Sequence record: NC_134264.1
Length of the DNA stretch: 64,000 bases
Direction: 5' to 3' (one strand)
DNA from: Escherichia phage Lindwurm
Shown one piece after another: positions 37,563-45,492 of the stretch. A program made the position numbers and the translations under genes. The notes beneath the pieces were generated by a model, which had not been told where the DNA came from, made no database searches, and worked only from the letters and a program-made list of their open reading frames with translations. Numbering within the stretch: the first letter of the stretch is position 1; every line of letters begins with the position of its first letter.

Positions 37563-38082
37563 TATGAATGTTGATGAGCTAACACAGCACCTCTTATCTA
37601 GAGGATTTGATACAGATAAATATCATTGCTGGTTAAGTACGGAAGGATGGCTAACAGTCCCGTTGTATGACTTCTCTGGGATGTTGAGGGGCTATCAAAC
37701 TTATAATCCTTCTGCTCCAAAAGGTCATGGTAAGTGCCCCTTTGAAGCTAAATACTTTACTTATTCTACTACCCAGTGTGTATGGGGACTAGAAACTCTC
37801 AATGGAGATGAAAAAGTAGTATTGATTGCTGAATCTGTATTTAAGGCAGTTGCGTTACATAACGCTGGTTATCCAGCCCTAGCAATGTTGGGTTCTTCTC
37901 CAGGAAAAGCGTTATTAAAGCAACTGAAATTACTACCTTTTAAATTGATAGCTGTCGGGGACAATGATCCTGCGGGTGAAAAATTTGCTAGAAAATTAAA
38001 CGGCTTTGTTTCTCCTGTAGATGTAGATGAGATGTCTACCGAAAACTTGAAAAATTTTCTTGCTATGAAGCTAAATTTCTAA
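37563..38082 (+). CDS. Toprim-domain protein
   Basis: VVLIAESVFKA ... KLIAVGDNDPAGEKFARKL (conserved Glu plus DxD); ATG 37563. Confidence 0.55.
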
Positions 38083-38088
38083 TATAAT
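38060..38088 (+). promoter_or_regulatory. early-type promoter embedded in 3' end of preceding CDS
   Basis: TTGCTA-17-TATAAT immediately upstream of tRNA-Ser. Confidence 0.5.
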
Positions 38089-38198: not shown

Positions 38199-38276
38199 GG
38201 TTCTCAAGCTCATATGGTATGAGCACCCAGCTCATAACTGGAAGGTACGTAGGTTCGAATCCTCGGGGAGCCACCA
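38199..38276 (+). tRNA. tRNA with CAU anticodon (Met/fMet/Ile2)
   Basis: acceptor GGTTCTC/GGGAGCC with G-U pairs, D-arm GCTC-ATATGGTAT-GAGC, anticodon loop CTCATAA; T-stem poorly paired. Confidence 0.55.
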
Positions 38277-38294: not shown

Positions 38295-38483
38295 ATGGAT
38301 CTATATATAGTTTATGTTGTGTTTATTCAAGATAGAGAATACCCGGATGAATATAAAAAAGGATATAGGTTAGCCAGAGCTACCTCTGAAGCCCAAGCTA
38401 TGGATAAAGTGGCAGATTATATGATTACGGTAGAAAACGTACACTATATCGACTACCTTGAAGCCTCAAAAGTAATTGACTAA
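38295..38483 (+). CDS. hypothetical protein
   Basis: 62 aa. Confidence 0.45.
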   Translation: MDLYIVYVVFIQDREYPDEYKKGYRLARATSEAQAMDKVADYMITVENVHYIDYLEASKVID

Positions 38484-38492
38484 GGAGACTAT

Positions 38493-38678
38493 ATGTCCAA
38501 GTTTCAAGAACTCAAGCAAGAGCTAGAAGAGTGTGCCTGCCCTGAGTGTAGGGGAATTGGTGAAAGTTCTGATGCAGAAGCAGGAGATACTTTTTGCAAT
38601 ATCTGGGTTTGCCCAAATTGCAATGGTACAGGTATTAATCCTAACTGTGGTATTTCCCTAGATATTGAACGAGGATAA
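38493..38678 (+). CDS. hypothetical Cys-rich zinc-ribbon protein
   Basis: CACPECRG...CNIWVCPNCNGTG. Confidence 0.5.
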   Translation: MSKFQELKQELEECACPECRGIGESSDAEAGDTFCNIWVCPNCNGTGINPNCGISLDIERG

Positions 38679-38779
38679 TACCTGTGAAACTAAAAGATTA
38701 CTATATTGGTTGGTTTGTGGGACTAGTAGTAGGATTTTCACTAGGCTATAATATGTATCAACTAATAAACTGATTACAT

Positions 38780-38856
38780 GGGGGTGTAATCGAATTGGCA
38801 TAGGTACTGGACTTAAAATTCAGGTTTTGTGGGTTCGAATCCCACCACCCCTACCA
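38780..38856 (+). tRNA. class I tRNA with UAA anticodon (Leu-decoding by anticodon)
   Basis: acceptor GGGGGTG/CACCCCT, D-stem ATC/GGT, anticodon stem CTGGA/TTCAG loop CTTAAAA, 5-nt variable loop, T-arm GTGGG-TTCGAAT-CCCAC, A73, CCA. Confidence 0.6.
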
Positions 38857-39802: not shown

Positions 39803-39890
39803 GGGCGTTTATTCCGTAAGTGGTAGCGGAGGGGACTGTAAATCCCTGGTCATTGCGACTCGAGTGGTTCGACTCCATTAACGCCCACCA
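39803..39890 (+). tRNA. tRNA-Tyr (anticodon GUA), class II
   Basis: acceptor GGGCGTT/AACGCCC, anticodon loop CTGTAAA, long variable arm, T-loop TTCGACT, CCA. Confidence 0.7.
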
Positions 39891-40576: not shown

Positions 40577-40659
40577 GGGTCGTTAGCCAAGTGGTTTGGC
40601 GGCGGATTGTTAATCCGTGTCGAAAGACAACGTAGGTTCGAATCCTACACGGCCCGCCA
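40577..40659 (+). tRNA. tRNA-Asn (anticodon GUU) with 13-nt extra arm
   Basis: acceptor GGGTCGT/ACGGCCC, D-arm GCCA-AGTGGTT-TGGC, anticodon stem GCGGA/TCCGT loop TTGTTAA, variable region GTCGAAAGACAAC, T-arm GTAGG-TTCGAAT-CCTAC, CCA. Confidence 0.65.
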
Positions 40660-42953: not shown

Positions 42954-43038
42954 GGGGCTATGCTGGAACTGGTAGACAATACGGCCTTAGATTCCGTAGC
43001 TTAAATGCGTGGGAGTTCGAGTCTCCCTAGCCCCACCA
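42954..43038 (+). tRNA. tRNA-Leu (anticodon UAG), class II
   Basis: acceptor GGGGCTA/TAGCCCC, anticodon loop CTTAGAT, 13-nt variable arm, T-arm GGGAG-TTCGAGT-CTCCC, A73, CCA. Confidence 0.7.
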
Positions 43039-43054
43039 ACTTATAGGGTAATGT

Positions 43055-43639
43055 ATGCAGTTTGTACCAATAAAAGATGCACCAGGGTATTTAGTAAATG
43101 AAACAGGGGATGTGTTATCTACATTTACTAATAAAATTTTATCAAGATATATAGTTGATGGATACCCTGCTGTAAAATTACAGATAAATGGTAAGCAAAC
43201 TTCGGTACTTATACACCGAATTATTTCTCATGTATTTGGGGACTTATATAATCTATTTGACCCTGAATTAGAAGTAGATCACAAGGATAGAGATAGGCTG
43301 AATCTATCTAAAGATAATCTTCAAGTTTTGTCAAAAATAGAACATCAGAAGAAAACTAATAAAGATAATGGATGGTCTGATAGTAGAGTACCTTGCCCCT
43401 TATGTGGAAATCTAATGCTTCAGAGATCAGTAACATGTACAAATTGTAAGCCAAAACCTACAGGAAAGTTAATAAAACCAGAATTGTCCTTAGAAGACAT
43501 AACTGAAAAGGTTTTATTAATGGGGTGGGTTAAGGCAGCTAAAGATCTAGAAGTATCAGAGTCCACTTTACGTAGACGATATACTAAACTAACCGGATTA
43601 AGCCCAAAAGTATTAACAGAACAACGGAAAAGCAAATAG
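43055..43639 (+). CDS. HNH homing endonuclease
   Basis: EVDHKDRDRLNLSKDNLQVLSKIEHQKK HNH motif; C-terminal Cys cluster and HTH-like tail; sits inside tRNA island. Confidence 0.75.
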   Translation: MQFVPIKDAPGYLVNETGDVLSTFTNKILSRYIVDGYPAVKLQINGKQTSVLIHRIISHVFGDLYNLFDPELEVDHKDRDRLNLSKDNLQVLSKIEHQKKTNKDNGWSDSRVPCPLCGNLMLQRSVTCTNCKPKPTGKLIKPELSLEDITEKVLLMGWVKAAKDLEVSESTLRRRYTKLTGLSPKVLTEQRKSK

Positions 43640-43719
43640 ACTGGTGACTAAACCCGATTGGAAATCGGTTGAGTGGTAGCAATACCGCCTTATGGGTTCA
43701 ACTCCCATCTTTTCCGCCA
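43626..43719 (+). tRNA. tRNA-Ser (anticodon GGA), class II
   Basis: acceptor GGAAAAG/CTTTTCC, anticodon stem CCGA/TCGG loop TTGGAAA, long variable arm, T-arm ATGGG-TTCAACT-CCCAT, CCA; 5' end overlaps HNH stop by about 14 nt. Confidence 0.55.
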
Positions 43720-45405: not shown

Positions 45406-45492
45406 GCTGGGTTGGCAGAATGGTTGAATGCACCTGATTTGTAATCAGGAGGAGTAATCCCACTGCAGGTTCGAATCCTGTGCCCAGCACCA
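45406..45492 (+). tRNA. tRNA-Thr (anticodon UGU) with 15-nt extra arm
   Basis: acceptor GCTGGGT/GCCCAGC, D-stem GCA/TGC, anticodon stem CCTGA/TCAGG loop TTTGTAA, variable region AGGAGTAATCCCACT (GGA-GTAA-TCC hairpin), T-arm GCAGG-TTCGAAT-CCTGT, CCA. Confidence 0.65.

Follow-up and report, generated by a model that had tools for sequence, protein, structure and literature searches.

Escherichia phage Lindwurm carries a gene for a transfer RNA (tRNA) that combines the leucine anticodon UAA with a variable loop of 5 nucleotides (nt), the arrangement known as type I. The gene lies on the + strand at positions 38780-38856 of a stretch of 64,000 nt from the phage genome (sequence record NC_134264.1), which is referred to here as the window. 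It is a genuine and conserved gene for a type-I tRNA-Leu(UAA), and its product is most likely charged with leucine by the host's leucyl-tRNA synthetase (LeuRS) and used to read UUA and UUG codons. The initial annotation of the window had found the cloverleaf and left its amino-acid identity undecided between a type-I leucine acceptor and a tRNA charged otherwise.

Cloverleaf and anticodon

ARAGORN calls tRNA-Leu(taa) at 38780-38856 (+), 77 nt in length including an encoded CCA; the full gene sequence is GGGGGTGTAATCGAATTGGCATAGGTACTGGACTTAAAATTCAGGTTTTGTGGGTTCGAATCCCACCACCCCTACCA. The same interval is matched by the Rfam model RF00005 over model positions 1-71 of 71, with 57.4 bits (gathering threshold 29; E = 1.1e-11). 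This is a real tRNA gene, far beyond chance. The acceptor stem (38780-38786 with 38846-38852) includes a G1.U72 pair, and the D stem of 3 base pairs (bp; 38789-38791 with 38803-38805) encloses, in the ARAGORN layout, an 11-nt D loop, GAATTGGCATA (38792-38802). The residues of this loop, GAAUUGGCAUA, are G13 A14 A15 U16 U17 G18 G19 C20 A20a U21 A22, with G13.A22 unpaired. An anticodon stem of 5 bp (38807-38811 with 38819-38823) carries the loop CUUAAAA (38812-38818) and is followed by the variable loop GUUUU (38824-38828), in which U48 (38828) can form the A15:U48 Levitt pair. A canonical T arm with the T loop TTCGAAT (38829-38845), the discriminator A73 (38853) and the encoded CCA (38854-38856) complete the molecule, all on the + strand.

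The anticodon UAA occupies 38814-38816, and ARAGORN and Rfam concur on it. The possibility that another stem presents a different anticodon was checked in the RF00005 covariance-model alignment, where the same anticodon loop is placed with high posterior probability and no alternative anticodon stem is favoured. Every detail of the cloverleaf as initially annotated, that is, 77 nt, a 5-nt variable loop, the loop CTTAAAA and the anticodon UAA, is borne out by the two programs. With 5 nt and no long arm, the variable loop is unlike that of a class-II tRNA, which has an arm of more than 10 nt forming a stem-loop; a leucine anticodon together with a variable loop of 4-5 nt is what defines a type-I tRNA-Leu. 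Nor is this a nonsense suppressor, which would have the anticodon UUA, CUA or UCA: 5'-UAA-3' pairs with UUA and UUG, not with the stop codon UAA.

Leucine identity elements

For LeuRS of Escherichia coli, A73 is crucial to leucine identity and the anticodon and the long arm are dispensable, and A15:U48, G18G19, A20a and the tertiary pairs between the D loop and the T loop are essential (review by Giege and Eriani). Seven features were scored: A73; U8:A14; A15:U48; G18G19 with an alpha region of 4; a beta region of 3 with A20a; an unpaired 13:22; and T54 T55 C56 A58. The comparison set held 1,044 unique tRNAs from viral and reference loci, including 902 short-loop tRNAs with 41 different anticodons; the UAA tRNAs of the viral set had been selected by a search pattern, and those with UAG, CAA and GAG had not. 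The five tRNA-Leu genes of E. coli K-12 were aligned side by side with the tRNAs of the window.

When its identity elements (A73, the D loop) are compared with what LeuRS requires, as the initial annotation had proposed, the Lindwurm tRNA-Leu(UAA) passes all seven features. A73 is present, U8:A14 and A15:U48 can both form, G18G19 follows a 4-nt alpha region, the 3-nt beta region contains A20a, the 3-bp D stem leaves 13:22 unpaired, and the D-loop/T-loop partners U54, U55, C56 and A58 are in place. Among the ARAGORN calls in the window, only this tRNA and the class-II tRNA-Leu(UAG) reach seven, and the tRNA-Lys reaches six. In the comparison set, the full signature is found in 68-87% of Leu tRNAs (68% of class-II Leu, and 72% of class-I Leu whose anticodon is not UAA) and in one of 842 non-Leu tRNAs (0.1%), a long-arm Tyr. 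Furthermore, the signature-positive viral tRNAs among the 902 with short loops have leucine anticodons without exception (141/141: UAA 102, UAG 21, CAA 17, GAG 1). Since bodies with UAA, UAG, CAA and GAG share the signature, and leucine is the sole factor that those anticodons have in common, the body plan very probably means leucine. This link between signature and anticodon is the strongest non-circular evidence for a leucine body plan.

Single features are of unequal value. A73 is present in all 171 class-I Leu tRNAs of the viral set and also in 58% of the non-Leu viral tRNAs. U48 is found in 116/117 class-I Leu(UAA) and in 54/55 class-I Leu tRNAs with other anticodons; A15:U48 is nevertheless supportive only in combination, because it occurs in 33% of non-Leu viral tRNAs. 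By contrast, a beta region of 3 with A20a is seen in just 4% of them. Mean D-arm identity is highest to Leu, and nearest-neighbour identity by arm is otherwise uninformative. As to the identity left undecided at first, the type-I leucine alternative is thus favoured by A73, the full D-loop and hinge signature and the exclusive link to leucine anticodons in 902 tRNAs, and the alternative of charging with another amino acid loses ground, as determinants of the phenylalanyl- and lysyl-tRNA synthetases (PheRS and LysRS) are missing (see below).

The closest host counterpart in decoding is the type-II tRNA-Leu(UAA) of E. coli encoded by leuZ, with which the phage tRNA shares the anticodon, A36-A37-A38, the loop form YUUAAAA, A73, U48 and G1.U72, the last being found in leuU as well. 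The D-arm plan is also common to both: a 3-bp stem, G13.A22, and the series A14 A15 U16 Y17 G18 G19 N20 A20a. Indeed, the E. coli tRNA-Leu D loop GAAUYGGUAGA has the same length and register as that of the phage tRNA. They differ in the variable arm (about 15 nt in leuZ versus 5 nt), at position 32 of the anticodon loop (UUUAAAA in leuZ versus CUUAAAA), at position 9 (A in the phage, G in leuZ) and at positions 20/21 (C/U versus U/G), and 42 of the 72 positions outside the arm are identical.

Conservation and compensatory changes

About 290 phage records contain the gene at 99% identity or higher, and in 339 the match extends over 80% or more of its length. Every annotated phage record carrying it gives it as tRNA-Leu, and close relatives as tRNA-Leu-TAA. 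In Escherichia phage HildyBeyeler the tRNA is identical at 76 of 77 positions, compared with 91.5% identity for the surrounding 3 kilobases (kb). In 5,426 complete E. coli genomes, blastn found no homologue, the sole matches being T-arm stretches of 23 nt on plasmids; the gene is therefore not a recent capture from the host.

More distant homologues were collected with a pattern combining a Leu-type D loop, the UAA anticodon loop, a 5-nt variable loop and a T loop, which matched at least 120 viral contigs. From homologues with less than 88% mutual identity, a gap-free alignment of 59 sequences was made for the analysis of covariation. On the proposed cloverleaf 99.3% of the cells of this alignment are paired, and 19 of the 20 pairs have changes on both sides. 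Not one of 500 shuffles scored as high, and with slid partners only 34-46% of cells were paired. Compensatory changes among homologues thus uphold the cloverleaf.

Probable charging by the host, and codon use

We infer that the gene is transcribed, that the transcript is processed and leucylated by host LeuRS, and that the tRNA is of benefit to the phage. Transcription would take place within the cluster of tRNA genes and small open reading frames (ORFs) typical of T5-like phages, and maturation would yield a 77-nt tRNA already provided with CCA. Host LeuRS would then load leucine onto it. The E. coli enzyme ignores the anticodon and the long variable arm and reads A73 and the shape of the elbow, all of which is kept here: U8:A14, the A15:U48 Levitt pair, G18G19 placed by the 4-nt alpha region, A20a and the D-loop/T-loop pairs. 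The six window ORFs with 350 amino acids or more encode a DNA polymerase, a helicase, an origin-binding-like protein, NrdD, NrdA and NrdB; none of them is an aminoacyl-tRNA synthetase, so charging would fall to the host.

The charged tRNA would decode UUA, and also UUG, on the ribosome. Roughly half of the leucine codons of E. coli are CUG, and UUA and CUA are minor; UUA is served in the host by a minor tRNA. The phage is A+T-rich, and UUA leads among the leucine codons of the 60 window ORFs that have 100 codons or more, with 24.9%, followed by CUA with 21.2% and CUG with 17.3%. Together with the phage tRNA-Leu(UAG), the tRNA-Leu(UAA) would raise the supply for the two leucine codons that the phage overuses. 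The two phage anticodons match exactly these codons, which fits the codon supplementation usual for phage tRNAs.

Short-arm leucine tRNAs in other phages and in chromosomes

Type-I tRNA-Leu genes are also found far from Lindwurm. A 77-nt tRNA-Leu(UAA) is encoded in Aeromonas phage TS3, Vibrio phage PG07 and Proteus phage 1, which belong to other genera of Demerecviridae, as well as in Pseudomonas phage ZC08 (Schitoviridae) and Pectobacterium phage Arno162 (Ounavirinae). Genes of 75-77 nt for tRNA-Leu(UAG) occur in DT57C, R7, PG07, Proteus phage 1 and Streptomyces phage Teutsch. Among the viral class-I Leu(UAA) genes, two types of body can be told apart by position 13, the D loop and the variable loop. 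One type, with G13, the D loop GAAUUGGYAUA and the variable loop GUUYU, includes the Lindwurm tRNA and those of the Aeromonas, Vibrio and Proteus phages. The other, with C13, CAAUYGGCAGA and the variable loop xxAGU, is represented by Pseudomonas phage ZC08 and resembles actinobacterial chromosomal genes.

A scan of prokaryotic chromosomes with the same pattern, taking one genome per species, gave at least 120 loci, of which at least 117 are tRNA-Leu(UAA) genes of 74-77 nt with a 5-nt variable loop and a Leu-type D loop. Among the matches listed, each of the seven features is passed by 116-117 of the 117 genes, and the gene stands alone, as the only tRNA gene of its locus, in 110 of 120 loci. 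The copies listed are mostly from Actinomycetota (Nocardia, Mycobacterium, Gordonia, Rhodococcus, Nocardioides, Arthrobacter, Corynebacterium, Rothia), with further ones in Planctomycetota and a few in cyanobacteria and others. Examples from these loci (L136-L255) are L144 of Nocardia mikamii, L145 of a Mycobacterium sp. and L141 of a member of Planctomycetota. The short-arm tRNA(UAA) genes of Actinobacteria, Planctomycetes and other phages share with the Lindwurm tRNA the length of 74-77 nt, A73, A15:U48, AAUYGG, A20a, the 5-nt variable loop and CUUAAAA. It differs from the majority of the cellular copies, and from one subfamily in phages, which have C13 and an xxAGU variable loop, whereas the Lindwurm tRNA belongs to the G13/GUUYU subfamily; the identity of the other short-arm tRNA(UAA) genes, phage and chromosomal, to the Lindwurm tRNA is 54-82%.

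Two natural type-I systems have been described. The type-I tRNA-Leu(CAA) of Streptomyces coelicolor likewise is a natural bacterial tRNA whose variable loop has 5 nt; it occurs beside type-II Leu tRNAs and depends for its charging on one bacterial LeuRS (Fan et al., 2019; PMC6614811). It differs in being encoded by the cell, in its anticodon CAA and in its variable loop ACAGC, which ends in C48. Furthermore, S. coelicolor LeuRS does not use A73 (PMC6614811), whereas the phage tRNA has A73 and U48 and must use an enterobacterial LeuRS. Animal mitochondrial tRNA-Leu(UUR) is also of type I with the anticodon UAA, and its leucine identity is achieved through A73 and A14 without the arm (review by Giege and Eriani). 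It is organellar and structurally loose and has a dedicated mitochondrial LeuRS; the phage tRNA, unlike it, has a canonical elbow with G18G19 and T54 T55 C56. In Mycobacterium tuberculosis, only tRNA-Leu-2, -3 and -5 have been listed with long loops, which implies that its other Leu tRNAs are short.

With type I in S. coelicolor (PMC6614811), in many phages and in Actinobacteria and Planctomycetes, the premise of the initial annotation that bacterial tRNA-Leu is class II was too strong. The tRNA-Leu annotation of the gene in hundreds of records and the published type-I tRNA-Leu of Streptomyces and of mitochondria are known already. The spread of the form in phages, and its presumed dependence on an enterobacterial LeuRS that is reported not to charge type I, seem to have gone unremarked so far; in the part of the literature that was searched, no prior description of type-I tRNA-Leu in phages was found. 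A wider claim, to which we give a small probability, would be that type-I Leu tRNAs form a large unrecognised class in phages and chromosomes, charged by ordinary gammaproteobacterial LeuRS if A15:U48 and A73 are present. The class would take in UAA, UAG and CAA anticodons, at least four phage families infecting Gammaproteobacteria and Actinobacteria, and many chromosomes of Actinobacteria and Planctomycetes. If true, it would contradict the published statement that E. coli LeuRS charges type II only. In its boldest version, phages would have given up the arm to evade host toxins that take hold of class-II tRNAs there.

The tRNA cluster and the accessory cassette

Lindwurm is one of the T5-like Salmonella/E. 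coli phages (Tequintavirus, Demerecviridae), and over 3 kb its window shares 98.9% identity with Salmonella phage vB_SenS_S124. The window contains a + strand cluster of 22 tRNA genes at 34.5-46.5 kb, 21 of them called by ARAGORN and one added by Rfam, interleaved with small ORFs of unknown function. The added gene, at 38199-38273 (+; 38.2 bits in Rfam), corresponds by synteny to T5 'tRNAI2 (CAU)' and is annotated as tRNA-Met(CAT) in relatives. Conversely, two ARAGORN calls, Tyr(GUA) at 39803-39890 and Ser(GGA) at 43626-43719, fall below the Rfam gathering score, and the Tyr gene is called a pseudo-tRNA in some GenBank records. Two genes of the cluster show the opposite anomaly to that of tRNA-Leu(UAA), as they belong to short-loop isotypes and have long variable regions. 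tRNA-Thr(UGU) at 45406-45492 has 87 nt with a variable region of 15 nt, in which ARAGORN draws a 3-bp arm, and tRNA-Asn(GUU) at 40577-40659 has 83 nt with a variable region of 12-13 nt; the T5 genes have 75 and 78 nt, respectively. tRNA-Thr is cleaved, among others, by HepS of the Salmonella prophage Gifsy-1.

tRNA-Leu(UAA) is part of an accessory cassette, delimited by blastn against T5 (AY543070) to 38297-38849 (+), in which it is preceded by three small ORFs. PHROG and Pfam searches covered these ORFs, which lie at 38295-38483, at 38493-38678 (a 'Q-like' zinc ribbon) and at 38684-38773, all on the + strand. The third has 29 codons with a GTG start (MKLKDYYIGWFVGLVVGFSLGYNMYQLIN) and a hydrophobic core, ends 6 nt before the tRNA, and has no match in PHROG or Pfam; it is annotated in HildyBeyeler and not in S124, and is 98.9% conserved. 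A sigma-70-like match, TTGCTA-17-TATAAT, is located at 38060-38088 (+), upstream of tRNA-Ser(GCU), in a consensus scan whose matches are not enriched over shuffles; T5 has its annotated promoter P15b at the corresponding place. One transcript running from there through Ser, Ile2, the three small ORFs and Leu(UAA) would be plausible. In T5, an HNH homing-endonuclease gene, hegA, stands in place of window 38297-38849, the corresponding T5 interval being AY543070 36379-37062 (L256 9373-10064). T5 homology resumes at window position 38850, so that T5 keeps only the last 7 nt or so of the tRNA-Leu(UAA) gene. As judged from this alignment, the cassette looks to have been replaced in T5 by the mobile endonuclease gene.

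The companion tRNA-Leu(UAG) and its slot

The second leucine tRNA of the cluster, tRNA-Leu(UAG) at 42954-43038 (+), has 85 nt, a variable region of about 13 nt, a Leu-type D loop and all seven features, and is the separate class-II gene that the initial annotation had recognised. T5 has its counterpart, tRNA-Leu1(UAG), which is annotated as convertible to an amber suppressor. Both copies share with tRNA-Leu(UAA) the lineage, the cluster, the Leu-type D loop and A73, and are unlike it in class, in their length of 85 nt and in the anticodon; T5 itself is without Leu(UAA). Other Demerecviridae have class-I tRNA-Leu(UAG) genes of 77 nt, namely DT57C (L009 292-368), R7 (L010 292-368), Proteus phage 1 (L007 371-447) and Vibrio phage PG07 (L006 180-256). 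The DT57C gene lies 5 nt after tRNA-Ala(UGC), which is the slot occupied by the 85-nt class-II gene in Lindwurm and T5. Outside the arm, Lindwurm Leu(UAG) is identical to the Proteus phage copy at 53 of 72 positions and to the DT57C copy at 42. The idea that the DT57C gene is the Lindwurm class-II gene minus its arm was rejected on this count of 42, which suggests that one gene replaced the other and not that a simple indel took place. In this slot, indels of the arm and replacement of the gene both seem to happen.

Evidence against leucylation and alternative explanations

Several observations weigh against a translated, leucylated tRNA-Leu(UAA). Folded alone to minimum energy, the sequence does not form a cloverleaf (z = -1.2); unmodified tRNA sequences rich in A+U often behave in this way, and the model match and the covariation carry more weight. 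The homologues used for covariation had passed an ARAGORN filter, which biases them to cloverleaf-formers. A naive-Bayes isotype profile was trained on 1,044 tRNAs from viruses and E. coli (leave-one-out accuracy 82%), for which the anticodon was masked, the variable region was taken out and only class-II sequences stood for Leu. With Leu trained in this way, the profile does not separate Lys from Leu for this tRNA, Lys being marginally ahead at -5.4 versus -5.9 bits over all columns and, with no gain in resolution, at -2.5 versus -3.6 bits over the core (unpaired and tertiary) columns; all scores are negative, so the body fits no trained isotype profile well. The absence of the gene from T5 makes it accessory and dispensable for the lineage. 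Finally, E. coli LeuRS did not charge the type-I tRNA-Leu(CAA) of S. coelicolor and is stated to charge type II only (Fan et al., 2019; PMC6614811). That substrate has C48 and lacks the A15:U48 determinant, and the phage tRNA has U48. The difference between C48 and U48 would be a reasonable explanation for the failure of the E. coli enzyme on the Streptomyces tRNA.

A first alternative is an addition compatible with leucylation: loss of the arm may have been adaptive, allowing the tRNA to escape toxins or nucleases that grip the class-II arm while it remains a LeuRS substrate. Such a loss would be tolerated, since LeuRS ignores the arm. Several phage families have class-I Leu tRNAs, and these have several anticodons; T5-like phages have either a class-I or a class-II Leu(UAG) in one slot; sequence changes are known to let phage tRNAs evade anticodon nucleases; and MenT3 is a precedent for a toxin that recognises class-II tRNAs by the arm. 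Nevertheless, no enterobacterial defence is known to target tRNA-Leu(UAA) via the arm, and the papers on three candidates gave no link: bacterial Schlafen cleaves the anticodon arm with no class-II or Leu specificity reported, HepS targets Thr, Ile and Ser tRNAs, and the Gifsy-1 terminase cuts the anticodon loop of tRNA-Leu(CAG). In addition, the short-arm form is a normal chromosomal gene in Actinobacteria, which makes a phage-specific explanation unnecessary, and the lengthened variable regions of the Thr and Asn tRNAs in the cluster suggest relaxed constraint, not directed loss. In T5-like phages the variable region seems to be a weakly constrained hot spot for indels, and escape from arm-gripping toxins is an unlikely reason for the missing arm.

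A role outside translation is quite unlikely. The molecule would then be poorly charged or uncharged and act as a decoy or sponge for tRNA-targeting toxins or as a source of fragments, or the gene would be a decaying accessory one. The failure of E. coli LeuRS on a type-I tRNA-Leu speaks for it, as do the position of the gene in an accessory cassette that T5 lacks with no obvious harm and the known ability of phage tRNAs to counter tRNA-cleaving defences. However, a decoy would not require A73, the full hinge signature and a leucine anticodon together, and here the positions for LeuRS recognition and for EF-Tu and ribosome geometry, as well as CCA, are intact and are conserved or co-varying across distant phages. 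Moreover, the anticodon suits the commonest leucine codon of the phage, and the gene is near-invariant in hundreds of genomes.

Charging with another amino acid such as Lys or Phe, by which UUA and UUG would be partly recoded, is very improbable, in spite of the slight lead of Lys in the whole-body profile, the six of seven hinge features in the window tRNA-Lys, the lack of Leu specificity of A73 and the E. coli LeuRS failure mentioned above. LysRS relies chiefly on U35 and the UUU anticodon, and these main determinants (U35 with UUU or CUU) are missing, A35 and A36 being present instead. Alanyl-tRNA synthetase would not find its G3.U70, which is G3-C70 here, and seryl-tRNA synthetase would find neither a long arm nor G73. 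E. coli PheRS, according to a review, needs G34, U20 and U59, and the tRNA has U34, C20 and A59. The body signature, which goes with UAA, UAG, CAA and GAG and never with a non-Leu anticodon among short-loop tRNAs, is hard to explain unless the amino acid is leucine, and recoding of UUA would alter most phage proteins, since UUA is their top leucine codon.

Implications

An annotation as tRNA-Leu is reasonably secure for this gene, and nothing gives cause to suspect that the phage recodes UUA. In phage and actinobacterial genomes, such genes may receive wrong scores from isotype-specific tRNA models in which a long arm is expected. The tRNA is also a natural test substrate at a point where the literature conflicts, with the arm dispensable in vitro and a natural type-I tRNA-Leu left uncharged by E. 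coli LeuRS. Should enterobacteria charge the phage tRNA, the arm would be dispensable in nature too, not only in minimal constructs, and a rule based on A15:U48 and A73 would explain which type-I Leu tRNAs a LeuRS accepts.

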